From positions 1-24,993 of the forward strand of contig JBFGHF010000001.1 in the NCBI GenBank assembly GCA_041578355.1: 24,993 bases of DNA, written 5' to 3'. Below the pieces are notes generated by a model, which saw only the letters and a program-made list of their open reading frames with translations, did not search any database and was not told the DNA's origin. The DNA comes from Acidobacteriota bacterium. GTDB lineage: Bacteria; Acidobacteriota; UBA6911; RPQK01; JANQFM01. Position 1 is the stretch's first letter. Each line of letters begins with the position of its first letter. The position numbers were made by a program, and so were the translations under genes. This document shows positions 4,267 through 17,951 of the stretch, in pieces.

Positions 4267-5943
4267 ATGACGCGTTTTATCGTATTGCTTTCGATCGGAC
4301 TGCTGGGCCTGCTGGCGGCCTGTGTGGACGAGCCTGCCCCACCTGCCGGGCCTGAAATCGACCAGGACGCAATTCTCGCCGATGTGCTCGCTTTGTCGGC
4401 TGACGAGATGGAGGGTCGCGGGGCCGGAACCCCGGGGGAGGAGAAGGCCGCCGCCTACATCGAATCCCGATTTCGCGAAGTCGGGCTCCAGCCCGTTGCG
4501 GGGTCTTATTTTCAGAGCGTCAAGTTGGTGGGAACCAAGAAGGTGGCTGAACAATCTTCGCTGACCATTCAGCGGGGCGGCAGGGAACTGTCGTACGAGA
4601 ACGAAAAGACGCTCACCTACTGGTCGACATCGCAAAAGGAGCGGGTCGAGATCGATTCCGCGCCTCTTCTCTTCGTGGGCTACGGAGTGGAGGCACCCGA
4701 ATACGATTGGGACGATTTCAAGGGCGCGGAACTGGCGGGCAAGGTCCTGCTCTTTCTCAACGACGACCCGCCCGTCTCCGAGGACGGAACGGAGCTGTTC
4801 GGCGGAGCGGCCCGGACCTACTACGGACGCTGGACCTACAAGTTCGAGCAGGCCATGAAGCACGGAGCGGCCGGCGCCTTGATGATCCACACCGAGCCCT
4901 CGGCCAGCTATCCCTTCAGCGTGGTCCAGCACAGCGGCGCCGAGGAACATTTCGCGCTCGATCTGCCGGGAAGCGGTTATCAGGTGGATCTGGTGGGATG
5001 GGTAGACGAAGACACCTCCAACCGGATCGCTCGCGCCATGGACACCGATCTGGCCGGCTTGTTCGCCAGGGGCGCCGAGAGGGATTTTTCGCCCGTCGAC
5101 ACCGGATACCGTGTGAGCGCCGGGATCCAAACCGAGATCAGGCGATTGGAGACCCGCAACGTGATGGGTGTATTGGAGGGCTCGGACGCCGCGCTGAAGG
5201 ATCAAACCATCGTATTTTCAGCTCATTACGACCATATCGGGACCAATCCCGACCTTCCCGGGGAGGACAAGATCTTCAACGGAGCCTGGGACAACGCGGC
5301 GGGGACGGCCGCAATCATCAGCTTGGCCGACGCCTTCGTGAAATCGGCCCAGGCGCCCCGGCGCTCGCTGCTGTTTCTGGCTTGCGCCGCCGAGGAAAGC
5401 GGCTCGCTGGGCAGCCGCTGGTTCGTCAACCAGCCCCCATTCGAGAAGAGTCGACTGGTGGCCAACTTCAACATCGACATGCCCCAGATCTTCGGCGTGA
5501 CCTCCGACCTGGCCGCCATCGGAGTGGATACCAACACCTTGGGTGACGTGCTCAGGGAAGTGGCCGCCGAACACCAAGTCAACCTGGCCGACGGAAGCAC
5601 AAAAGCGCTGCGCGTGACCGGAGATCCCGACCCGGGTGCGGGCAGCTTCTACCGCTCCGACCAGGTCAACTTCGCCAAGGCCGGAATCCCCGCCCTCTTC
5701 CTCAATCCGGGCGTCGACTACGTCGCCGAACTCGGCTTCGATCCCGAGGAGTACCACACGACGCACTATCATCAGGTGGCCGATGAAGTGGACGAGGCCT
5801 GGGATCTGGCAGGTCTGGAGCGCGATCTGAAGGTGGTCTTCGAAACCGCTCTTCGCGTCGCCAACGCCGACTCGATGCCGCGCTGGGTCCCGGGTCACGA
5901 GTTCGAGGAAGAGTGGAAGGCGCTGCACGGTGCTGACCGCTGA
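4267..5943 (+). CDS. M28-family metallopeptidase with PA domain, predicted lipoprotein (558 aa)
   Basis: Lipobox LLGLLAAC after a hydrophobic signal. DEMEGRGAGTPGE; PA-domain segment FVGYGVEAPEYDWDDFKG...YYGRWTYKFE; zinc-ligand motifs SAHYDH, NGAWDNAAG, AEESGSLGS, NFNIDM, RSDQ, YHQVAD. Confidence 0.93.
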   Translation: MTRFIVLLSIGLLGLLAACVDEPAPPAGPEIDQDAILADVLALSADEMEGRGAGTPGEEKAAAYIESRFREVGLQPVAGSYFQSVKLVGTKKVAEQSSLTIQRGGRELSYENEKTLTYWSTSQKERVEIDSAPLLFVGYGVEAPEYDWDDFKGAELAGKVLLFLNDDPPVSEDGTELFGGAARTYYGRWTYKFEQAMKHGAAGALMIHTEPSASYPFSVVQHSGAEEHFALDLPGSGYQVDLVGWVDEDTSNRIARAMDTDLAGLFARGAERDFSPVDTGYRVSAGIQTEIRRLETRNVMGVLEGSDAALKDQTIVFSAHYDHIGTNPDLPGEDKIFNGAWDNAAGTAAIISLADAFVKSAQAPRRSLLFLACAAEESGSLGSRWFVNQPPFEKSRLVANFNIDMPQIFGVTSDLAAIGVDTNTLGDVLREVAAEHQVNLADGSTKALRVTGDPDPGAGSFYRSDQVNFAKAGIPALFLNPGVDYVAELGFDPEEYHTTHYHQVADEVDEAWDLAGLERDLKVVFETALRVANADSMPRWVPGHEFEEEWKALHGADR

Positions 5944-8811: not shown

Positions 8812-8908
8812 CAAGGGAACACGCCACAAAACGCCGTTTTCGGCGTGTCGCCACTTGTCGCTTGCCGGACTTTCCGGGTCGCCCCAGACTGGGTGCGGAG
8901 CGAAAAAA

Positions 8909-9730
8909 ATGATGAAGCGACATCCGGACTCGTATTGGACTCGCCGACGGATTCAAAGCCTGAGCCGCGTTCTGACCTGCGCCGTGGTGGCCGGCTCGTT
9001 GGGAACCCTCTTCTGGAATCCGCAAGGACCCTTCAGCTACTTGCTGGACGTCCTGTTGCGGACCTATCTGATGTTTCTGGGGACGGTGATGGCTCACGAA
9101 GCCGTTCACGGGCATATGGGAGCGAGCCGCTCCTCGAATTTCCGGTGGGGACGGTTTGCCCTTCTGCCCACCCTGGTGCCTTACACGAACTTCCGAAAGA
9201 CCCATCAATTGCACCACCTGCATACCAACGTCCCGGGGTGCGACCCCGATCTCTTCATGAAGCCGCGGCGGAGTTGGGAGATTCCGTTTCGCGCCTTGGC
9301 CATGCCCCACAGCTGGTTTTTCTGGTTGCGGAAGCGAGGCCGACTGAAAACTCCGGATCTGCGCGAGTTGGTCGCCAATTATCTGGGAATCGCGTTGGTC
9401 TACGGCCTGTTGTGGAGTCAGATCGGCCTCTGGCGTCTGGTTCTGGGGATCGGTCCGGCTCTGGTTTTGGTTTCCGTCCTGCTCTGGTACCCCTTCGCCA
9501 TCAAAACACATGAGGGGTTCTCCACCGGAGCCGCCGAGTCGCGCTCTCACGACTATTACGGCAAATCGATGTACTGGCTTTCGTTGGGCCTGTCGATGCA
9601 CCGCGAGCATCATCTGCAGCCGCGCCTGTCCTGGCTCGAGCTGGGAAGGTATGTCAAGTCCGCGCCGTCCGGGGAAGGATTCCGATTCTGGCCCCGCCGC
9701 GACATTCGGCAAGATAAGGAGGCGGCGTGA
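8909..9730 (+). CDS. Membrane fatty-acid desaturase / hydroxylase / ketolase superfamily protein (273 aa)
   Basis: Three His boxes HEAVH, HQLHH and HREHH with hydrophobic segments between them; HTNVPGCDPD after the second box. GGAG RBS before ATG 8909. Confidence 0.9.
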   Translation: MMKRHPDSYWTRRRIQSLSRVLTCAVVAGSLGTLFWNPQGPFSYLLDVLLRTYLMFLGTVMAHEAVHGHMGASRSSNFRWGRFALLPTLVPYTNFRKTHQLHHLHTNVPGCDPDLFMKPRRSWEIPFRALAMPHSWFFWLRKRGRLKTPDLRELVANYLGIALVYGLLWSQIGLWRLVLGIGPALVLVSVLLWYPFAIKTHEGFSTGAAESRSHDYYGKSMYWLSLGLSMHREHHLQPRLSWLELGRYVKSAPSGEGFRFWPRRDIRQDKEAA

Positions 9731-11052
9731 AGCCGACGTTGCTGGATTGGCTCTGCCTGGCCGCCGAGACCCATTCCCGGCCCCAAGATTTCACCGTCCT
9801 CCTGAGCTTGAAGGAAGGGCCGGGGTGGGGCGATTTGGAAAAGGGCGGAGGGAGCGCCTGCAACCTATATCCCAAAAGCGGCGCTCTGCTTTCTGGCGGG
9901 GAGTGGGTGCCGAATTTCCAGCAGCCTTTTCGGGTTGAGCGAGATCTCTCGGTGAGTGATTTCGTCAACGGCCGCTTCGATCTGACGGTTACGCCGCCGG
10001 TCAAGCAGCTTGTTGTCAAAGCCGACCGCTCGGAAACGATTCTGGCGACGCGCGTTCACCATGCTGCAGCCGACGGAGCCAGCGCGGCGCTTTGGCTGTC
10101 CCACCAACTGGGGGTTGTCCGAGGTTCGATCGATCCGCTGTCCGTTCCCGGGAGGATCCGGAATCCGGTGCTCCGCAGCTTCCGGCGGCCGCGCCGAGTC
10201 AGCCCCTTCGCCTTTCTCAGGCCCGCCGATCCCTTGCATGAGGACGGAACACCCCGGCGGCGTCGTTGCTGGAAGACGGTGGAGGTTCCGGATGGGGAGC
10301 TGCCCGGGTTGGGGAGCAGGAGCCGGCTTGGAGAATTTTCTTTCCAGCGCAGCCTGGAAGGCCGCGCCACGTTGGGGTTCTCGAGGGCTGATTGCCTGGC
10401 TGTGTGTTTGCTGGAGGCGCTGAAAGCCTGGCGATTGAAACGCGGCCGGGGGTACGGCCGTTTCGGGCTCTGGTATCCCGTCGACATCCGGCGCCGCAGG
10501 TGGGGCGGATTCGGCAACGGAACCAGTCGGATCCGCCTTTACTCGCGCTTCCCCCCGGAAGCGGATTCCTTCACTCGTTTCCGCCATTTGCGTCGCCAGA
10601 TCCGATGGTCCATGAGGAACGGCGAGTGGCAAATTCCGGCCGCGGAGTGGCTGCAACGGGTGCCGAGGTCGGTTCTGCTGCCCTTGCTGCGCTGGCTGAT
10701 CCGGCGCCCGCGACTCGACTACGGAAGCGCCGTCTTCACCCTCCTACGCTGGCCCACGGGCCCCTTCGAGGGAATTCCGTCTTCGATTCGAAAGGTCGAA
10801 ATCATCGGTCCCTTGCATCGCCAACACGCCCTGGCCGTCAACTGCGTGACCCTGGCCGGCCGGACATGGCTCACCTTCACCTTCGATACCCACCTTCTGA
10901 CTGCCGGCGACGTGGACGTGATTCTCCAGGCCTTTTTGAGCCGTCTCAGGGAGTTTCGGATGCCGGCCAGGGGCCAGGCGGGGCCGGGTTTCCGCTTACC
11001 CGCGGGGGAGTCGGGATTTCCCCGGGGGCGCGCGCTCGAGCTGCAATCGTGA
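9727..11052 (+). CDS. Stand-alone condensation-domain-like / CoA-dependent acyltransferase (441 aa)
   Basis: Catalytic HHxxxDG motif (RVHHAAADG, nt 10057-10077), mid-protein WYPVDIR...FGNG, and C-terminal TWLTFTFDTHLL, all typical of C-domain/CAT-like folds. AGGAGG RBS; GTGA overlap with the desaturase stop. Confidence 0.8.
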   Translation: MKPTLLDWLCLAAETHSRPQDFTVLLSLKEGPGWGDLEKGGGSACNLYPKSGALLSGGEWVPNFQQPFRVERDLSVSDFVNGRFDLTVTPPVKQLVVKADRSETILATRVHHAAADGASAALWLSHQLGVVRGSIDPLSVPGRIRNPVLRSFRRPRRVSPFAFLRPADPLHEDGTPRRRRCWKTVEVPDGELPGLGSRSRLGEFSFQRSLEGRATLGFSRADCLAVCLLEALKAWRLKRGRGYGRFGLWYPVDIRRRRWGGFGNGTSRIRLYSRFPPEADSFTRFRHLRRQIRWSMRNGEWQIPAAEWLQRVPRSVLLPLLRWLIRRPRLDYGSAVFTLLRWPTGPFEGIPSSIRKVEIIGPLHRQHALAVNCVTLAGRTWLTFTFDTHLLTAGDVDVILQAFLSRLREFRMPARGQAGPGFRLPAGESGFPRGRALELQS

Positions 11053-12770
11053 GAGCTCCCGCTGCAGCAGAGAGAATCAACGATCGGCTTCGGGCCGGGA
11101 TTTCACTCGCCATCAGGTTGTCGGGGCTACTGCTGCACTTGTGGCAGCTGCCCTGCATCCGCCTTCACCCTCTTCGGCAGCGACAGTTGGCTCGCCGCTA
11201 CGGTGTGGCTCCATCGCTACCCGTGCGGCCTTTTTCTCCCGCTCTGGAGCTGCGACTGCGGCGGCGATCGGCCGGAAATCCGCGCTTGGCGGCAACCAGC
11301 GGCACGAGCGGGGGAGGGAAGCAAGTTCCCTACAACTGGTGGCGGCTGCAGCAGGTCAAACTGACTTTTGTGGCAATGTTCGCAAGGCTTTGCTGGTCGC
11401 GGTCGATCCGGCGCACCGGCCTCTTCGTTTTCGCCGCCCCCGACGAAAGCGGATCCCTGACTTCGGTGCTGCTCGAGGAGAAAGCCGGGCCCTCTTATCT
11501 CAGCGGCCTGCAGGCGCCGTATCGGGTCCTTTTCGATCGGGGATTGAGACCGGTGATCCGGCGATACGGCTTGGACGCGGTGCAGCTCTGGATTCTCGCC
11601 GTCTCCAATCCCGGGGTTCTTTACAGCACCAACCCGTCGACGCTTTGGGCCTTCTTCAGCCGTCTGGAGGAGGATTGGCCCCGGGCCGCCCGCCTGGTCC
11701 GCGAGTACGCCGGCGATCCTCTCGCCTTGGGGGAGGAGTTCGAACGAATCGGGCGGCGCATCGCCTCGTCGGGGGCCGATCGGCGGCTGAGAGCCATCGC
11801 TGAGAGTTCCGCACCCCTGCCTCTGGCCACCTTCGCGCCCGCGGTAACGGCCTGCATCTGTTGGACCGGGGGGCAGGTGGGCGCTTTTCTGGAGCGATTG
11901 GAGGGCAAGCTGTCCGGGGCCGGGATTTTCATCGTGCCGATGTTCTCGATGTCTACGGAAACCGTCGAAACCGTGAGTCACTTCGGAGCCGCCGGGCCGA
12001 AGTTCCTACCGATGGCGAGGGGGGTCCATTACGAGTTTCAGGAGGAAGGGGTGGAACTTCGCGGGGCGGAACTGCTGAGGCCCGGTCAATTGCGGAGCGG
12101 CAAGGACTATTCCATGATCGTCAGTGATGGTTGGGGCTTGCTCAGGTATCGCACCGACGACGTCTTCCGATGTCGGGGCTTTGTGGGGAAGGTCCCGGAT
12201 CTCGAGTTCGCGGGACGGCGAGGCCTCTCCTACTCTTTCACGGGCGAGAAACTCACCGGCGCTCAGATCGACAAAGTGCTTCGCCGCCTGGGGCAGGAGT
12301 TCCGTTTCGAAGCCGAGCTCGATTTGATGACCTGTTTCCCCTTCTCCGCTTCGAGCGGAGGATTGCCTCACTACAAGATCGCGGTGCTCGTCGATGGCCG
12401 AGCGGCGAGCCTCGAGGCCGGTTGCAAATCGAGCGAGCTGGATCGACTGGCCTGCAGGGCGGACGAGCTACTCTGCAAAACCAATCCGGAATACAAGTCC
12501 AAGCGCCGGTCGCAACGCTTGGGCAAGGTCGAGGCTCTTGTGATGCGTTACCAAGACCTGCCCACTCTCGTCTCGCCCAGGGGCTGGCATTCCCAGTTCA
12601 AGCATCTGCCTTTCTACCCTCGGCTCGTCGCGGCGTTGCCGGAGGCGGTGAACCATTCCGGAGCCGGCGGTGCAGCCATTCGAAATCGGGAAAATCCCGT
12701 CCCAGCAGAAGAAAAGCCGATCCCGCGCGCCGCGCCGTTTCGCCATCGGTGTCCTGGCGATCGCCTATGA
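11049..12770 (+). CDS. GH3-family (acyl-acid amido synthetase-like) adenylating enzyme (573 aa)
   Basis: P-loop TSGTSGGGK, SMSTET, YEF, LLRYRTDD, SFTGEKLT, NPEYKSKR...RL and terminal QFKHLP. GTGA overlap with the upstream stop. The ORF-track start at 10392 is an out-of-frame overlap with the acyltransferase gene. Confidence 0.85.
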   Translation: MRAPAAAERINDRLRAGISLAIRLSGLLLHLWQLPCIRLHPLRQRQLARRYGVAPSLPVRPFSPALELRLRRRSAGNPRLAATSGTSGGGKQVPYNWWRLQQVKLTFVAMFARLCWSRSIRRTGLFVFAAPDESGSLTSVLLEEKAGPSYLSGLQAPYRVLFDRGLRPVIRRYGLDAVQLWILAVSNPGVLYSTNPSTLWAFFSRLEEDWPRAARLVREYAGDPLALGEEFERIGRRIASSGADRRLRAIAESSAPLPLATFAPAVTACICWTGGQVGAFLERLEGKLSGAGIFIVPMFSMSTETVETVSHFGAAGPKFLPMARGVHYEFQEEGVELRGAELLRPGQLRSGKDYSMIVSDGWGLLRYRTDDVFRCRGFVGKVPDLEFAGRRGLSYSFTGEKLTGAQIDKVLRRLGQEFRFEAELDLMTCFPFSASSGGLPHYKIAVLVDGRAASLEAGCKSSELDRLACRADELLCKTNPEYKSKRRSQRLGKVEALVMRYQDLPTLVSPRGWHSQFKHLPFYPRLVAALPEAVNHSGAGGAAIRNRENPVPAEEKPIPRAAPFRHRCPGDRL

Positions 12771-15582
12771 CCAGAACGCGGCCCGGTTGCAGACCGAATT
12801 CGGCGGCGATTTTCCGCAGCATCCGATGATCGGGTTTGACGGCCCCGATCTCGTCGCCGGCATAGACGGCCGAAAAGAAATTCCCCAAACTCAGAGCTTC
12901 CAGTTTGTGCCGGACTGGATGGTCGGAGTAGACGACCTGAACAGATCCGATCGATTCGAAGTAATCCAACACCGCCCGCACCCCCGGCCGGGGACCCGCC
13001 GAACCGATGGCCCGATCGATCCAAGGCGAGATCCACGGCTGCGTCGTCATTTCCTCGATGTTCGTATTCGGTGCATTCCGTTTCGCCCCAGCTTGTCGCC
13101 TCCGTTCCCAGAGCCGAAGCAGTTCTCCGAGCGCAGCGAACGGCGGCTTGCCGCGCAGGGTCTGCACCCAGCAGAGGCGGCACAGTTGCAGGGCCGCGCG
13201 GCGGCGGCTGTAGAGGGTGCCGTCCAGGTCCCAACAGATCAAGTCCGGCTGCCAGTGCGGGGAAACGGGGAAGGGCGAAAGCGACTCTGCGGCGCCGCTG
13301 ATTCGAGGGGACAGGCGGGATGGCTGCGGCACGTTTCCCCATCTCAAGAGAAGGGCAGGCAGAATGACCAAGTCCGCAAGCAGCGCCGCCAGGATCGAGA
13401 GTGCCAGAAGTTGACCGGTTACGCGGGCGGGTGTGAAGTCGGCCAGTTGCAGAGTCAAGAAGCCCGCCGCCATGACCAGCGAGGTGGAGAGAATTCCTGG
13501 CGCGGCCTCCTGCAGAGCGCCGCAGACGCCGGCCGCACCCGTCACGCCCTGTGGCCGATAGGCGGCCAACAAGTGAATCGTGTCGTCGACACAGACTCCC
13601 AGGATGATGGAAAAGACGATGCAGGAGGAGATCCTCATCTCGATTCCCGAGAGGCCCATGAGAGAGAGGACCGTAAGAGCCGGAAAGACGTTGACCAGGA
13701 TGGCGAAAAAGACCAAACGCCGCGAGCGGAGCAGCGCCGCCAGGGTCACGCCCACGGCCAGGAGGCCCAGTGCGAAGCCGCGTGCGGATTGACCCACCAC
13801 GCGGCGCTGCATCTCCTGAGCCAGGTATACGAATCCTTGAATCTCCAGGCGGCTGTCTTCGCCGAACACCCGGTCGTGAATGGTGCGCGCTTTTTCCAGG
13901 AACTCGAAGGTGCGTGCCGTGCCGCGATCGAAGACCCTGGCTTCGATGCGGGCGATTCCTTCTCTCCAATCCGGAAAAGCGTTCTCGACGTGGCGGCGGG
14001 CCACGGCATCCAGCACTTTCCAATCGGCGGGTGCTCGGGGCAACGGGTCGAGGCCCGTCATGGCGCGCCAGAAAAAGCGGTAGATGGCCGCGGGCGAGAT
14101 CGAGCTGCTGACGAAATCGGGTGCTTGCGAGAAAGTGCTTTCGAATTCTCGGATGCGGGCGGCGAACTCCGAGAATCGTAAGGAGTCTCCGGCCAAGTCC
14201 TCGGACGTGTGGAGGATGAAGGTCAAGGGAAAACCGCCCCCCATCCTCTCTTCGACGGCTTGTCGGGTTTGTCTGATCGGATGACCGGACCGAACGTCGT
14301 CGACCAGCAGGGATTCGACTCGCAAGCGGGGCATGCCTGCCGCAGCCGAGAGGAGAAGGAAGAGGAGGGCTGCGGTGGCCGCTGTTCCGGATCGGCGTGT
14401 CAAGCGTCCGATCCAGCCGACTCCCGAAGCGGCCGAGGGTGTCGGCGCGGGCAAGAGCGACAGTGCCGCCAGTCCCGTGGTCATGGTGGCGGTGTAGGCA
14501 ACCCCCATTCCGAGAGCCGCGACGAGTCCGAAATCTCTCAAAACCGGGATGCCGGTCGCCACCAGCGAGAGAAATCCCGCGGCGGTGGTCGCGGAGGTCA
14601 GGAGCAAGGCGCCGTTGAGCCGTTCGGCGGCCGAAGCGAGCGAAGCTTTCTTCGATCCCTCTTTCAGAGCCCTCCGATAGGCGTGGAAGAGATGGATGGA
14701 GTCGGAACTGGCGGCGAAGGTGAGAATCACCGGAAGCGCGATCGAAAGGGGAGAGAGAGGACGGCCCAACGCGGACTGCAGGGCCAGGGTCCAGAGAATG
14801 GTCGATCCGGCCACCAATGCGGGCACGACGATTCCCAGCCAATGGCGCAGCGTGACGCCCAGGAGCAGCGTGAAGGCGATCAGAACCAAAGGGAAAACCT
14901 TTTTTGCGTCTTGGCGAATCAGCTGAAGATAGGCCTCCCGAGTCGGAGGACTGCCGGTCAGCAGGAAGCTCCGCCCAGATCGGCAACGGGCTTCCAGGAT
15001 TCGGGAGACAGTCTGGAGGAGCGGTTGACGATCCCGCCCGTCGTCGTAATCCGAGTGCAGCCAGAGAAGCAAAATGGCAGTCTTCCCGTCCTCTGATAGC
15101 AGCCGTCCCGCCAGCAGCGGTTCGCCCCGGATTTGCTTCTCGAGATTCTCCCACTCCGTGGGACTGCGGGCTTCGCTTCCGAGGGCGGGAATCAGCTTGA
15201 CGGCGCCGATGCGCCGGCCCGGGTAAAGCAGGTCGAAAAGGGGATCGCGTCGGGCGATTTGGGAATCGACGAGACTGTCCACCTGCTCGACCCAAGGCAA
15301 GGCGCCCAGGGTCTCGGTCAACTCGCGAAGCTGAGTGGCGCCGGAATTCGAAAAAAGCTGCGGATCGGTCCAGAGGACCGTCAAGGTGCGGTCGGCCCGC
15401 CCGAAACGTTCACCCAACTCTTTGTATCGCCGCGTAAGGGGGTCGCGGTCGGCAACGAACTGTTCGAGACTCAAATCGACGTGCAAGTCGCGCAGCGCCG
15501 AGACGGCGGGCAAGCTCAACAGAGCCGCCGTTGCCAGCAGCAGACAGGGACGGCCGATGGAGAAGGCGATGAGTCTCTTCAT
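12598..15582 (-). CDS. MMPL/RND-family transporter fused in frame to a C-terminal HAD-family hydrolase (994 aa)
   Basis: N-terminal TM, two periplasmic loops, and two TM bundles with SSDSIH and GVCVDDTIH. A Pro/Ser-rich linker leads to HAD motifs I (WDLDGTLY), II (YSD), III (KP) and IV (IGDRQDTD). GGGAGG RBS upstream. Confidence 0.88.
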   Translation of the reverse strand: MKRLIAFSIGRPCLLLATAALLSLPAVSALRDLHVDLSLEQFVADRDPLTRRYKELGERFGRADRTLTVLWTDPQLFSNSGATQLRELTETLGALPWVEQVDSLVDSQIARRDPLFDLLYPGRRIGAVKLIPALGSEARSPTEWENLEKQIRGEPLLAGRLLSEDGKTAILLLWLHSDYDDGRDRQPLLQTVSRILEARCRSGRSFLLTGSPPTREAYLQLIRQDAKKVFPLVLIAFTLLLGVTLRHWLGIVVPALVAGSTILWTLALQSALGRPLSPLSIALPVILTFAASSDSIHLFHAYRRALKEGSKKASLASAAERLNGALLLTSATTAAGFLSLVATGIPVLRDFGLVAALGMGVAYTATMTTGLAALSLLPAPTPSAASGVGWIGRLTRRSGTAATAALLFLLLSAAAGMPRLRVESLLVDDVRSGHPIRQTRQAVEERMGGGFPLTFILHTSEDLAGDSLRFSEFAARIREFESTFSQAPDFVSSSISPAAIYRFFWRAMTGLDPLPRAPADWKVLDAVARRHVENAFPDWREGIARIEARVFDRGTARTFEFLEKARTIHDRVFGEDSRLEIQGFVYLAQEMQRRVVGQSARGFALGLLAVGVTLAALLRSRRLVFFAILVNVFPALTVLSLMGLSGIEMRISSCIVFSIILGVCVDDTIHLLAAYRPQGVTGAAGVCGALQEAAPGILSTSLVMAAGFLTLQLADFTPARVTGQLLALSILAALLADLVILPALLLRWGNVPQPSRLSPRISGAAESLSPFPVSPHWQPDLICWDLDGTLYSRRRAALQLCRLCWVQTLRGKPPFAALGELLRLWERRRQAGAKRNAPNTNIEEMTTQPWISPWIDRAIGSAGPRPGVRAVLDYFESIGSVQVVYSDHPVRHKLEALSLGNFFSAVYAGDEIGAVKPDHRMLRKIAAEFGLQPGRVLVIGDRQDTDGETARRAGSAFLLLGRDFPDFEWLHRRLRNGSPPPATPRRAEGRKADA

Positions 15583-15693: not shown

Positions 15694-16524
15694 TTAGGGT
15701 TTGGCGGTGTCGTTGAGGCGCCAATCGTAGTCGATGTATCGGACTCGATAACGGCCCTCGAGCAGGAAATTCCGATCTTCCGGCGAGACGTAGTCGATCA
15801 AGTAGTCGAGCACTCCCTGCTCGATCGGGTCCTTCCGGGACCGCTGCCTCTCACCACGGGCCTTGCGAGCCTGGCCGGGCGTCTCGAAGTCCTCGCCGAA
15901 CCACTTGAATATCGAGGACAGGTGCAGCACGCCCTGCTTGCGGTCGATGGTCAAGTTGCGGGGTCGGGAAAGGAAAATGGCGCTCTGCTCCTCCAAGGCT
16001 TGTTCCAGACCGTCCCCTCGGTAAGGCCGGTTGCGAAGGGGCGGACAGCCTCGCGAAGCGCAGACCAGTGCGAAGTGGATGCGCGGCTCGGAGAATTCGG
16101 CCCGCAAAATCTCGTGCTCGATCTGATTGAGGCTCAGCCGTCGGCCCATCACCGGGAACCGAATCTCGTCCCAGACACCGGGGATTTGTTGAATGCTGTT
16201 GGCCGGATAGACCAAGGACCGTATGAAACGGCTCCGAATCGGGTAGTGGTCGATGACGATTCTCAAGGCGAGTGCGTTGTAGGCATTGATCCAAAAAGCG
16301 ATTCGTTCTTCTCGAGTCCATGCGGAGTAGGAGGCGCGGGAGATGGAGCCCAGCCGTTCAACGAATCGGTCCAGGCTCTTTCGTGAACCCTGGAGGCCTC
16401 GATAATCCACCTCTTCTCCCCGCACCCGGTTCTCCAGCACCGCGGCCCAATCGAGGTAGAGGTCGTCGCCGGGCCCGCCGAGCAGCACGCCGAGCAGGAA
16501 CGGCGCTGTGAAGAGGACCCTCAT
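15694..16524 (-). CDS. DUF547 domain-containing exported protein (276 aa)
   Basis: N-terminal hydrophobic signal; VDYRGL, AFWINAYNA, SLNQIEHEILR, EPRIHFALVCASRGCPPL, LSSIFKWFGEDF and YIDYDWRLN match DUF547. Confidence 0.9.
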   Translation of the reverse strand: MRVLFTAPFLLGVLLGGPGDDLYLDWAAVLENRVRGEEVDYRGLQGSRKSLDRFVERLGSISRASYSAWTREERIAFWINAYNALALRIVIDHYPIRSRFIRSLVYPANSIQQIPGVWDEIRFPVMGRRLSLNQIEHEILRAEFSEPRIHFALVCASRGCPPLRNRPYRGDGLEQALEEQSAIFLSRPRNLTIDRKQGVLHLSSIFKWFGEDFETPGQARKARGERQRSRKDPIEQGVLDYLIDYVSPEDRNFLLEGRYRVRYIDYDWRLNDTAKP

Positions 16525-16530
16525 GGGCCT

Positions 16531-16536
16531 ATTCTA
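16531..16536 (-). promoter_or_regulatory. -10 hexamer TAGAAT 6 nt upstream of the DUF547 ATG (probable leaderless transcript)
   Basis: The minus strand reads TAGAAT-aggccc-ATG; there is no SD. Confidence 0.55.
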
Positions 16537-16567
16537 TCCGACGCCCTGAAAGTGGAGAATAGTAGCG

Positions 16568-16576
16568 TGGTATAGT
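16568..16576 (+). promoter_or_regulatory. Extended -10 promoter (TG-g-TATAGT) for the first NTT-family transporter
   Basis: cgTGgTATAGTttcg, 40 nt upstream of ATG 16617 (GGTGG RBS). It lies back to back with the DUF547 promoter. Confidence 0.55.
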
Positions 16577-16616
16577 TTCGCGCCCCCCGGGTGAAGCGTC
16601 GAAGGTCGGTGGTGGA

Positions 16617-17951
16617 ATGGCTGTGACGAGTTCGGAAACGCCCTCCCAACAAAGCGTCCTCGACCGGCTGTTGCGCGTTTTCACCGAAGTGCGACCCGGC
16701 GAGGGAGCCACGGCCCTCCTGATGGCTCTCAACATTTTTTTCATCCTGAGCTGCTACTACATCCTCAAGCCGGCTCGCGAGGCCTTCATGAGCCTGGAGC
16801 CTCGCGGCGCCGAGTGGGCGAGCTATGCGGCGGCGATCATGGCCGTCCTTCTGGTCCCCATCGTAAAGGTCTACGGCAGTTATGCCGAGCGTGTCGGCCG
16901 CAGGCGGCTGATCATCGCGGTGACCGCTTTTTTCGCGCTGAACCTGGTCGTTTTCTATCTTCTGGCGGAAGCGCAGATCCGCCATTTGGGCATCGTCTTC
17001 TTTGTCTGGCTGGGCATCTTCAACCTCATGGTCGTGGCCCAATTCTGGGCCTACGGCAACGACATCTACACCCGTGAGGAGGGAAAACGGTTGTTCCCCC
17101 TCATCCTGGTCGGACAGACCTTGGGGGGGATTGTAGGACCCCTCTTGGCGAGAGGCGCCGTCAGCCTCACGGGCCAAACCCACCTGATGCTGCTGTTGGC
17201 CGCGGCGTTGCTCTTGATTTGCGTGGGATTGACCTTTTGGATCGAGCAGCGCACGACTCGGGGCCCGAAAAGGAGCACCCAGGTCGAAAGCGAATCGGGA
17301 CTGGGGCCGGGCGGAGGCTTTCAGCTGATCCTGCAGCATCGCTTTCTGCTTTTCGTGGCTCTGCTGATCATGGTTCTCAACCTGGTCAACACCACCGGGG
17401 AGTACATTCTGCGCGACAGTGTCTTCAGCGCCGCCCAGACTTCGGGTCAGGCACAGGAAGTATTCGTGGCGCAATTCTACGCGGACTTCTTTTTTTGGGT
17501 GAACCTCGTCTGCCTGTTGATCCAGGCGTTCCTGGTGTCGCGAATCCTGAAATACCTGAGCGTTCGCGGCGCGCTCTTCGTGCTCCCCTGCATCGCCCTG
17601 CTGGGTTACTCGGCAATCGCCCTGCTCCCGGTGCTCTGGCTGGTGAGGACCATGAAGACCCTGGAGAACGCCCTGGACTATTCGCTGATGAACACCTTGC
17701 GGGCCGCTCTTTACCTACCCACTTCGCGGGAGATGAAGTACAAGGCCAAGCAGGCCATCGACACCTTCTTCGTCCGGGCGGGGGATGTGCTTTCGGCGGC
17801 GGTGGTGGCGGGCGGAATCCATCTCATCGGCTTGCGGGCCCGAGGATTTGCGTTGTTGGTCTTGCTATTCGTCCTGGCCTGGCTGCTGTTGGCGCGGAGC
17901 ATCTCGCGCGAATACGGGCGCCTGGTGGCGGAGGGCGAGGGCGAGTCCTAG
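16617..17951 (+). CDS. NTT/TLC-family (Npt1/Npt2, ATP/ADP translocase-like) MFS-fold transporter (444 aa)
   Basis: EVRPGE, YYILKPARE, FNLMVVAQFWAYGNDIYTREEGKRLF, YSLMNTLRAALYLP..REMKYKAKQAIDTFFVRAGD. About 12 hydrophobic segments. Confidence 0.9.
   Translation: MAVTSSETPSQQSVLDRLLRVFTEVRPGEGATALLMALNIFFILSCYYILKPAREAFMSLEPRGAEWASYAAAIMAVLLVPIVKVYGSYAERVGRRRLIIAVTAFFALNLVVFYLLAEAQIRHLGIVFFVWLGIFNLMVVAQFWAYGNDIYTREEGKRLFPLILVGQTLGGIVGPLLARGAVSLTGQTHLMLLLAAALLLICVGLTFWIEQRTTRGPKRSTQVESESGLGPGGGFQLILQHRFLLFVALLIMVLNLVNTTGEYILRDSVFSAAQTSGQAQEVFVAQFYADFFFWVNLVCLLIQAFLVSRILKYLSVRGALFVLPCIALLGYSAIALLPVLWLVRTMKTLENALDYSLMNTLRAALYLPTSREMKYKAKQAIDTFFVRAGDVLSAAVVAGGIHLIGLRARGFALLVLLFVLAWLLLARSISREYGRLVAEGEGES

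Follow-up and report, generated by a model that had tools for sequence, protein, structure and literature searches.

A single-frame fusion of an MMPL-type RND transporter and a HAD-IA phosphatase beside a GH3 operon of a marine Acidobacteriota genome, and the separate gene pairs of its relatives

Lipid synthesis by bacterial GH3 enzymes was first described in 2025 for OlsH, the only characterised bacterial GH3 homologue, an ornithine-lipid N-acyl synthase demonstrating that bacterial members of this family make N-acyl amino-acid lipids (PMC12493201). OlsH forms its product with ATP and without a carrier protein; it requires ATP, Mg2+ and free fatty acid and liberates PPi. Its in vitro activity does not depend on a phosphatase, and it did not work in living E. 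coli, for which its authors hold scarce free fatty acid responsible; the OlsH/OlsI pathway has no known phosphorylated intermediate (PMC12493201). Ornithine lipids are known to concentrate in the outer membrane (2026 review, PMC12971839), and a word search of these two publications yielded no phosphatase, exporter or RND protein for GH3-made lipids. Among RND transporters of the MMPL type, structures of MmpL4/MmpL5 are reported to include a cytoplasmic biosynthetic partner, AcpM, and MmpL3 is reported to possess a C-terminal cytoplasmic domain (PMC10171966).

The stretch of DNA analysed here (the window, 24,993 nucleotides) originates from an uncultured marine Acidobacteriota MAG (746 contigs, 74% complete) and contains an operon with an OlsH-type GH3 gene that converges on a fused exporter-phosphatase gene. 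Its features are (evidence in parentheses):

8855..9730, plus strand: membrane di-iron desaturase/hydroxylase (FA_desaturase), same operon as GH3 (Pfam, synteny)
9727..11052, plus strand: HHxxxDG acyltransferase-like protein, 441 aa, same operon as GH3 (weak profile matches, synteny)
11049..12770, plus strand: GH3-like acyl-acid amido synthetase (OlsH-type), convergent to the fused ORF and presumed to work together with the HAD (Pfam GH3_M and GH3_C; synteny; overlap statistics)
12598..15582, minus strand: whole fused ORF, 994 aa (P0001), RND/MMPL transporter, linker and HAD-IA phosphatase (Pfam, NCBIfam)
13339..15582, minus strand: RND (MMPL-type) transporter, residues 1-748, with 12 transmembrane (TM) helices and two periplasmic domains, approximately residues 33-210 and 420-583 (Pfam, AlphaFold, Foldseek)
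14692..14703, minus strand: TM4 motif D294-S-I-H297, putative proton-relay residues (RND alignment)
13573..13590, minus strand: TM10 motif V665-D666-D667-T668-I-H670, putative proton-relay residues (RND alignment A4)
13246..13338, minus strand: linker, residues 749-779, about 30 residues, Pro/Ser-rich (sequence reading, pLDDT)
12658..13245, minus strand: HAD-IA phosphatase domain with C1 helical cap, residues 780-975 (Pfam, NCBIfam, structure model)
13216..13230, minus strand: HAD motif I, D785-L-D787-G-T789 (family alignment)
12925..12927, minus strand: HAD motif II, S886 (family alignment)
12835..12837, minus strand: HAD motif III, K916 of K916-P917 (family alignment)
12745..12765, minus strand: HAD motif IV, G940-D941...D946, codons within the convergent overlap with the GH3 ORF (family alignment)
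12598..12657, minus strand: C-terminal tail, residues 976-994 and stop, non-conserved (family alignment stops near residue 975)

As in the OlsH/OlsI/OlsG system of Singulisphaera acidiphila, the GH3-like enzyme shares its operon with an O-acyltransferase candidate; however, the latter is of the HHxxxDG type in the window, whereas OlsI is an alpha/beta hydrolase, and a di-iron desaturase/hydroxylase is added. The GH3_M model was matched with 48.8 bits (cut-off 23.6) and GH3_C with 20.7, just under its cut-off of 23.6; the WS/DGAT and Condensation matches of the 441-aa protein were weak and confined to the HHxxxDG motif, its Atlas neighbours including PapA, AATase and Condensation types, and the CrtR/CrtW-like NCBIfam matches of the desaturase were likewise weak. 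The 3' end of the GH3 ORF overlaps the fused ORF by 173 nt.

The fused ORF is a single unbroken frame of 994 codons from the ATG at 15582 to the stop at 12598-12600, and its Pfam and NCBIfam domains bear out the earlier note, in which it had been read as one MMPL plus HAD protein. The end given there for the MMPL part (near 13340) agrees with the last TM helix (residues 717-748), which sets the end of the RND part near 13338, and the four HAD motifs considered intact indeed fall on conserved positions (D785, D787, T789, S886, K916, D941 and D946 are invariant or nearly invariant columns in an alignment of 102 HAD family sequences).

Based on sequence and structure model, residues 1-750 are a member of the RND superfamily, MMPL family, for which proton-driven lipid transport is predicted. 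The Pfam model MMPL (PF03176) matched in two stretches, one per half (E 1.4e-27, 97 bits versus a cut-off of 20.5), and the Sterol-sensing model also exceeded its cut-off (31.9 versus 22.3). A hydropathy scan and the AlphaFold model (pLDDT above 90 over residues 1-750) revealed 12 TM helices in a 1+5 / 1+5 arrangement with two large periplasmic domains. The best solved folds in Foldseek, and the closest structural matches to this part, were MmpL4/MmpL5, HpnN and MmpL3 (TM-score by target 0.7-0.8, at most 0.80; MmpL4, 9b43: E 8e-23, 0.79; HpnN and MmpL3 within the top 25); they have the MMPL Pfam family and the conserved polar motifs of TM4 and TM10 in common with the fused protein, but only 13-17% sequence identity, and lack any enzyme domain. 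In an alignment of 60 RND sequences, H297 of TM4 and V665, D666, D667, T668 and H670 of TM10 occupy nearly invariant columns; by analogy with MmpL3 and HpnN, the polar residues of both helices are putative proton-relay residues. The actII/MMPL and HpnN models of NCBIfam remained far under their cut-offs. The protein resembles the HAE3 (TIGR00921) and HpnN subfamilies without being assigned to either: HAE3 reached 150.5 versus 351.9, and the HpnN models TIGR03480 and NF052374 reached 81.3 versus 751.85 and 48.7 versus 1100, respectively. A cytoplasmic domain after TM12 is also present in RNDs of the same broad branch (P0007, P0030, P0036, P0076); their appended domains, C-terminal cNMP-binding in P0007, P0009, P0030, P0036 and others and GGDEF in P0076, are ligand-binding or signalling modules and not a pathway enzyme as here.

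Residues 780-975 belong to the HAD superfamily, subfamily IA, with a predicted Mg-dependent phosphomonoesterase activity. The Pfam HAD models PF00702, PF13419 and PF13242 matched residues 780-961 (PF00702: 53 versus a cut-off of 26.4), and the NCBIfam model HAD-SF-IA-v1 (TIGR01549, cut-off 23.3) was exceeded by the whole protein (40.9) and by the domain alone (46.3). Of the two aspartates in HAD motif I, the first acts as nucleophile and the second, two positions downstream, as acid/base. The domain model, built with the 102-sequence alignment (pLDDT 91.0), consists of a Rossmannoid core and a C1 cap, the helices of which (model residues 24-108) lie between strands 1 and 2; RND and HAD parts were modelled from separate alignments, and a combined alignment for a full-length fold, in which MAFFT misplaced all HAD-only rows, was dropped. 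Fold matches were of the phosphoglycolate phosphatase, NANP and beta-phosphoglucomutase types, all C1-capped HADs. These HAD-IA phosphatases (phosphoglycolate phosphatase 2hsz, NANP 2w4m, PH0253 2om6, beta-phosphoglucomutase) share the core, the cap and the four motifs with the fused domain at 13-23% identity, whereas the subfamily present here is distinguished by a signature of its own (a W before the first Asp, an SDY...KL block and LHIGDR..TDG) and by its own genomic context. In NCBIfam, the phosphoglycolate phosphatase model (TIGR01449) was missed (32-36 bits versus 180), every other named HAD equivalog model was far under its cut-off, and the match to the pyrophosphatase PpaX was weak.

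The genomic context ties this HAD subfamily to the GH3 operon. Among loci with a flank of at least 2.5 kb on both sides, GH3 stands beside the HAD gene in 40 of 62 loci from genomes and in 11 of 18 from metagenomes, of which 35 and 6, respectively, also include the acyltransferase and the desaturase; in most HAD-GH3 loci there is no RND nearby, the exporter being an accessory of a minority. Furthermore, GH3 and HAD form single-protein fusions in L020 (P0164, 759 aa, GCA_964528245.1) and L158: the same HAD subfamily is joined there to another member of the pathway, the adenylating enzyme in place of the exporter, and this provides an independent link between the HAD and the GH3 module. At L020, the acyltransferase candidate is an OlsI-like alpha/beta hydrolase and not an HHxxxDG protein; an OlsI-type alpha/beta-hydrolase O-acyltransferase was absent from the window operon and seen only beside this GH3-HAD fusion. 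Conserved synteny and GH3-HAD fusions thus strongly back the link between the fused gene and the convergent desaturase/acyltransferase/GH3 operon that the earlier note had proposed. An operon in a genome of the same taxonomic order (G023), which seemed to lack the HAD gene, was discarded as a counter-example: it carries an IS1595 transposase at the HAD position and an acyltransferase split over two frames, its congeners G402 and G410 retain a stand-alone HAD, and it looks like decay. Shadow ORFs and fusion links dominated a single-linkage clustering of all ORFs from 164 loci, run to detect further conserved partners; the one addition was a second desaturase, present in some Terriglobia loci, and sulfatase, SDR and aldo-keto reductase neighbours occurred inconsistently.

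In six related loci, an RND gene of the same subfamily is directly followed by a HAD gene of the same subfamily, in the same order and on the same strand, as separate genes in different frames and with GH3 next door, as at the fused locus: contig C730 (L016) of G002, a genome of the same family as the fusion host, a Ca. Marinacidobacterales MAG (L079), two metagenome loci (L133, L179) and two Planctomycetota MAGs (L061, L069). Start and stop of the pairs overlap by 4 nt (GTGA/ATGA) in L061, L069 and L179 and by 16 nt in G002, there with a GGGAGG Shine-Dalgarno sequence, whereas the window gene has one frame and a linker of about 30 residues. The finding that the earlier note had named as refuting, separate genes in all relatives, was thus obtained, but it has two sides: because all relatives found (6/6) keep two genes, the fusion is lineage-specific and not a conserved architecture; yet the RND and HAD genes are a conserved, translationally coupled pair and not a chance juxtaposition. 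The HAD-adjacent RNDs constitute one clade (SH-aLRT 99), with the window protein inside its Acidobacteriota subclade, and the nearest RND relatives without a HAD neighbour (P0003, P0004) reside in unrelated contexts; a single origin of the RND-adjacent HADs was neither supported nor rejected by the HAD tree. L179 initially resembled a second fusion, its HAD lying in a 1030-codon stop-to-stop frame, but the RND is in another frame (RND end at 4959, HAD ATG at 4956), and high GC content accounts for the spurious long frame. Across 401 genomes of the phylum, the HAD-subfamily matches lie in frames of 238-283 aa, the fused frame (995 aa) being the single long exception. No MMPL-HAD fusion was found beyond this genome in the protein collections searched; literature searches on MMPL plus haloacid dehalogenase fusions and on RND phosphatase domains gave nothing relevant, in line with the impression that the fusion was undescribed, and a word-based search among long proteins with this HAD returned only two unrelated double-HAD proteins of Nocardiopsis. 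Next to the conserved genes, a SAM methyltransferase stands beside the HAD in G002, a further resemblance to the OlsH/OlsI/OlsG system; upstream of the fused gene (15694-17474), a DUF547 gene and a 317-aa gene are not conserved beside the pair in any relative and are for this reason excluded from the system.

On balance we favour, with modest confidence, the view that an exporter and a phosphatase, translationally coupled and serving an amide-lipid pathway, became fused in this lineage alone. The ancestor would have possessed a two-gene unit, an MMPL-type RND lipid exporter followed by a coupled HAD-IA phosphatase with its start overlapping the exporter's stop; a frame change or stop loss at this junction would have joined the short C-terminal tail of the exporter to the N-terminal extension of the phosphatase, resulting in a disordered linker of about 30 residues and a phosphatase tethered to the cytoplasmic end of TM12. 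The RND topology would place the HAD domain on the cytoplasmic side. The operon (8855-12770) may then make an N-acyl (amino)lipid at the inner membrane by means of its desaturase/hydroxylase, HHxxxDG acyltransferase and GH3 enzyme, the HAD domain may dephosphorylate a head-group intermediate at the membrane face, and the RND part, driven by the proton gradient, may carry the finished lipid from the inner toward the outer membrane; the identity of the lipid, the substrate of the HAD domain and any channelling benefit of the fusion are what we infer from this arrangement. The enrichment of ornithine lipids in the outer membrane and the binding of AcpM by MmpL4/MmpL5 agree with this model. Against it stand the finding of the fusion in a single MAG at low read depth, the lack of a known phosphorylated intermediate in the OlsH/OlsI pathway, the phosphatase-independent in vitro activity of OlsH, the scarcity of RND genes at HAD-GH3 loci, the undecided HAD tree, and two non-conservative changes in the RND part among the six SNPs of the metagenome runs; with two genes in all relatives, selection for the fused state would be hypothetical.

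The same junction could have arisen neutrally, if a frameshift or the loss of the stop recently joined the genes where stop and start overlap and the parts work as well as they would apart, so that the fusion means nothing mechanistically beyond adjacency and may even be slightly harmful or transient. Its uniqueness (6/6 relatives separate; the single long frame in the 401 genomes), the one-base change that suffices to fuse the frames at a 4-nt overlap, and a linker that resembles two former termini run together, without conserved features, fit such an event. In length, the linker approximates the sum of the C-terminal RND tail and the N-terminal HAD extension seen in relatives; it includes an in-frame GTG (V763) but no ATG (a TTG, L780, follows just past it), and residues 755-795 are disordered in the AlphaFold model (pLDDT below 50). 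Against a neutral origin, the genome carrying the fusion (G000) contains no second member of either subfamily, which makes the fused gene its sole copy of both functions; all catalytic and proton-relay residues are intact, the single SNP inside the HAD domain is synonymous, and related RNDs tolerate C-terminal cytoplasmic domains. We judge a purely neutral origin to be somewhat unlikely.

A further alternative concerns the HAD reaction, which might leave the exported lipid untouched and feed or pull the GH3 reaction instead, with the fusion to the exporter as a mere membrane anchor: by hydrolysing acyl-phosphate, which PlsX produces, and so providing GH3 enzymes with the free fatty acid they require; by freeing an amine acceptor from phosphoserine, phosphoethanolamine or a similar phospho-amino compound; or by splitting pyrophosphate to drive adenylation. 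Such roles are equally compatible with the data; the substrate requirements, PPi release and E. coli failure of OlsH point in this direction, as do the GH3-HAD fusions that put the HAD beside an adenylating enzyme, and the domain is closest in sequence and fold to HAD-IA phosphatases of a generic small-molecule kind, a putative phosphoserine phosphatase among them, the PpaX match being weak. Yet cells already possess SerB-type phosphatases and inorganic pyrophosphatase, no specific enzyme family match reaches its cut-off, and a supply role leaves unexplained why six loci couple the HAD to the exporter rather than to GH3; as a whole, a role restricted to the supply of GH3 appears doubtful.

That a false indel in the MAG contig merged two genes of different frames is very improbable, even though the source genome is a fragmented MAG and its closest relative keeps both genes in different frames. 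Read support over 13200-13400, which the earlier note had wished to see verified, is given at the level of assembled contigs: Logan contigs from four marine metagenome runs, assembled separately per run, span 13169-13468 and the remainder of the gene including its 3' end without insertions, deletions or joints, at a depth of only 3-5 per run and in runs that are probably the MAG's own samples. Since the separately assembled contigs of four runs cross the junction without indels, the fusion of the exporter and phosphatase genes is genuine and not an assembly artefact; moreover, unlike in G002, an ATG with a Shine-Dalgarno remnant is missing at the HAD start of the fused ORF. Least credible of all is a HAD that merely senses or switches the transporter like the C-terminal cNMP-binding or GGDEF domains of the related RNDs (P0007, P0009, P0030, P0036 and others; P0076), given that its subfamily is mostly free-standing beside GH3 operons without RND, is fused to GH3 in another lineage and conserves the full catalytic motif set.

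Gene fusions serve as Rosetta stones for function. The fusion, the six coupled pairs and the GH3-HAD fusions link three uncharacterised subfamilies into one pathway, namely one clade each of MMPL-type exporters, HAD-IA phosphatases and GH3 enzymes, the last with acyltransferase and desaturase; as the fusion is a singleton, it is of value for the partnership it suggests rather than as a new architecture of wide occurrence. The locus supplies two candidates for GH3-made lipids, an exporter and a phosphatase step, and its natural single-polypeptide form would be handy for structural studies of the contact between an RND lipid pump and the protein that supplies it from the cytoplasm. An extension of the favoured reading, which we consider speculative and on present evidence improbable, regards the RND-HAD pair as the missing maturation and export machinery for GH3-made amide lipids: the lipid would be assembled on a phosphorylated head group, the HAD would sit on the exporter's cytoplasmic face (by a covalent link in the fused protein), removal of the phosphate would be the committing step, and the RND would take the product straight to the outer membrane. 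If true, this dephosphorylation-gated lipid export would be a mechanism without described precedent, and the RND part would give acyl-amide membrane lipids their first assigned transporter.

The window is the entire contig C1 (24,993 bp) of a fragmented MAG that totals 4.34 Mb in 746 contigs at 74% completeness; among named LepA relatives, the best are Acidobacteriota. On it, RND and HAD are joined in a single polypeptide that keeps every functional residue:

15582 (ATG) to 12598-12600 (stop), minus strand: fused RND-HAD gene, a single unbroken frame of 994 residues
D785-L-D787-G-T789; S886; K916; G940-D941...D946: the four HAD motifs, read from the sequence of the fused frame

Pfam placed MMPL (E 1.4e-27, two stretches) and Sterol-sensing within residues 1-750 and matched the HAD models PF00702, PF13419 and PF13242 to residues 780-961; the top NCBIfam models for the transporter part were HAE3, HpnN and actII/MMPL, all far under their cut-offs, and HAD-SF-IA-v1 matched the C-terminal domain over its cut-off. 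The HAD motifs sit on columns that are invariant or nearly so in a subfamily alignment of 102 sequences, and the model built from this alignment (pLDDT 91.0) has a Rossmannoid core with a helical C1 cap, resembling phosphoglycolate phosphatase, NANP, beta-phosphoglucomutase and similar small-molecule HAD-IA enzymes (13-23% identity). Residues 1-750, modelled from an RND-only alignment at pLDDT >90, comprise twelve TM helices (the last at residues 717-748) and two periplasmic domains; the closest solved folds are MmpL4, MmpL5, HpnN and MmpL3, and the TM4 motif D294..H297 and the TM10 motif V665-D-D-T-I-H670 fall on conserved columns. Residues 755-795 were modelled at pLDDT <50. Because RND proteins have an N-in/C-in topology, the HAD domain would reside in the cytoplasm on a flexible tether past TM12. 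The description of the gene in the earlier note, made from the sequence alone, was accurate, since frame, domain matches, motifs and folds agree.

The fused stretch is present in four marine metagenome runs, with Logan contigs assembled independently per run; across the linker and both flanks these show neither indels nor joints:

13169-13330 and 13305-13468: contigs of run X2
12050-13273 and 13281-13816: contigs of run X1
13281-13913: contig of run X4

Assembler error is thereby ruled out. Depth is low (3-5) and the runs probably stem from the samples behind the MAG itself, so the agreement falls short of independent biological replication. Six single-base variants were detected in the fused gene among the runs, four of them synonymous, including the sole variant in the HAD domain. 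Run-level variants at 13553 and 13763 would replace P677 by R and L607 by P, within or close to TM helices of the RND part, and represent either strain variation or low-depth assembly noise. The junction contains neither an ATG nor a Shine-Dalgarno remnant for a HAD start, the only start-like codons being an in-frame GTG (V763) and TTG (L780).

In a search of 5.8 billion proteins the fused protein formed a singleton cluster; among the best 120 of 356 matches none combined MMPL and HAD, and the nearest RND had 28% identity to the fused protein. A word-matching search with the HAD domain, confined to long proteins, returned two Nocardiopsis proteins only, both unrelated, and an exhaustive HMMER search of 1.84 billion representatives with the HAD part yielded stand-alone proteins of ~200-290 residues, with the exceptions of P0164 (759 aa) and P0251 (510 aa). 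Five of the 401 genomes sampled from the phylum possess the HAD subfamily, in frames of 238-283 codons except for the window (995). Literature searches turned up no MMPL-HAD fusion, in line with the earlier note. Domain accretion is common in this RND branch, since nine relatives (P0007, P0009, P0012, P0030, P0036, P0038, P0042, P0076, P0084) bear other appended domains: C-terminal cNMP-binding, cNMP-binding plus GGDEF, or DUF1329/LolA-like.

HAD-alignment scans of genome and metagenome contigs gave 160 loci. In G002, the sole same-family genome with an orthologue, the HAD gene, in another frame, begins 16 nt before the TGA that ends the RND gene and is preceded by a GGGAGG Shine-Dalgarno sequence. 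Five further loci have an RND gene directly upstream of HAD on the same strand:

L079: RND-HAD pair, Ca. Marinacidobacterales
L133: RND-HAD pair, metagenome
L061 and L069: RND-HAD pairs, Planctomycetota
L179: RND-HAD pair, metagenome

RND and HAD are separate genes in different frames in every relative with the pair: L061, L069 and L179 each have a 4-nt overlap between HAD start and RND stop, and in L079 and L133 there is a candidate 4-nt overlap or a gap of 5-17 nt. The RND gene of the Marinacidobacterales MAG (L079:5618-7932) is broken into two overlapping frames (237 + 559 codons), the cause being a frameshift or else an indel error from long reads. A tree built with the 73 best RNDs of the database grouped the six RNDs that adjoin HAD in one clade (SH-aLRT 99), divided into an Acidobacteriota subclade, which holds the window, and a Planctomycetota-type subclade; the sisters of this clade (P0003, P0004) have unrelated gene contexts. 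RND and HAD, each from a dedicated clade of its own, make up a translationally coupled pair, and the window's genome contains no second member of either subfamily. The linker (~30 residues) is roughly as long as the C-terminal tail of RND and the N-terminal extension of HAD taken together in unfused pairs; a linker of that length is what a change of frame at a stop/start overlap would yield. The fusion is a one-off form of a two-gene unit that relatives conserve: the single polypeptide with intact motifs claimed by the earlier note is real, whereas all relatives found with the pair keep separate genes.

The dominant neighbour of the HAD subfamily is not RND but an operon that is convergent to HAD in the window:

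8855-9730, plus strand: FA_desaturase-type di-iron enzyme
9727-11052, plus strand: 441-aa HHxxxDG acyltransferase-like protein (~400 aa in general)
11049-12770, plus strand: GH3-like enzyme

When the count was confined to loci flanked by 2.5 kb or more on each side, GH3 occurred in 40/62 genome and 11/18 metagenome loci, and all three operon genes in 35/62 and 6/18, respectively. HAD and operon are convergent in Acidobacteriota and Latescibacterota; in Myxococcota, Bdellovibrionota and some others they point the same way. In two loci GH3 and HAD form one protein:

L020:2696-4975 (GCA_964528245.1): GH3-HAD fusion, 759 codons
L158:2901-5678: GH3-HAD fusion, ~926 codons

GH3 and HAD are partners in one pathway, and the interpretation first proposed is partly supported, namely in its partnership with the convergent operon. 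Remoter HAD relatives (Lachnospiraceae and elsewhere) are devoid of this context. In a Planctomycetota MAG (L069:5698-16554, JBFWYD010000007.1), RND, HAD and GH3 lie in this order on one strand and lead into one 2104-residue frame with AurF-like, FAAL, ACP, KS, AT and DH domains; the GH3 substrate in this lineage may be a polyketide-type fatty acid.

The same-order genome G023 was rejected as a counter-example (operon without HAD): an IS1595 transposase occupies the HAD place, the acyltransferase is frame-split and congeners retain HAD. Its desaturase-acyltransferase-GH3 operon (L184:7781-13553), with the acyltransferase in two frames, looks like a decaying copy. Six Terriglobia loci (L037, at 8873-10510; L028, L029, L035, L045, L052) have a second, larger FA_desaturase-family gene between HAD and GH3. 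In the window, the 3' ends of the GH3 and RND-HAD frames overlap by 173 nt (12598-12770) over the HAD motif IV codons; such GH3/HAD overlap, judged on open reading frames, recurs in 19/62 convergent loci (4-378 nt) and could reflect antisense interference or shared termination. Two minus-strand genes at 15694-17474, overlapping each other by 4 nt, lie upstream of RND, 111 nt from its start: a DUF547 gene and one of 317 aa that matches no family. Neither is conserved beside the pair in any relative examined.

[quoted passage not shown] An alpha/beta hydrolase just upstream of the L020 fusion could be an OlsI-type acyltransferase. A SAM-dependent methyltransferase (Methyltransf_11/25) between HAD and the convergent GH3 in G002 (L016:1355-2197, contig C730) recalls OlsG of the OlsH operon and is absent from the window. 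Neither PMC12493201 nor the 2026 review PMC12971839, which describes ornithine lipids as enriched in outer membranes, mentions a phosphatase or exporter. The window module is treated as working like the OlsHI pathway; it is set outside that pathway because its acyltransferase is of the HHxxxDG type and it has an extra desaturase/hydroxylase and an extra HAD.

Our preferred reading, tentative and by itself rated somewhat below even probability, is that HAD would strip the phosphate from a phospho-head-group amide lipid just ahead of RND, which would then extract the dephosphorylated amide lipid. The main alternative, plausible because OlsH requires free fatty acid, is a supply role of HAD: conversion of acyl-phosphate to free fatty acid or of phospho-amine to amine, or PPi removal. 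Dephosphorylation ahead of export and supply fit the data alike. The fusion itself may confer channelling or may be a neutral accident; what makes it interesting is that it gives GH3-type amide lipids a candidate exporter and a candidate phosphatase step.
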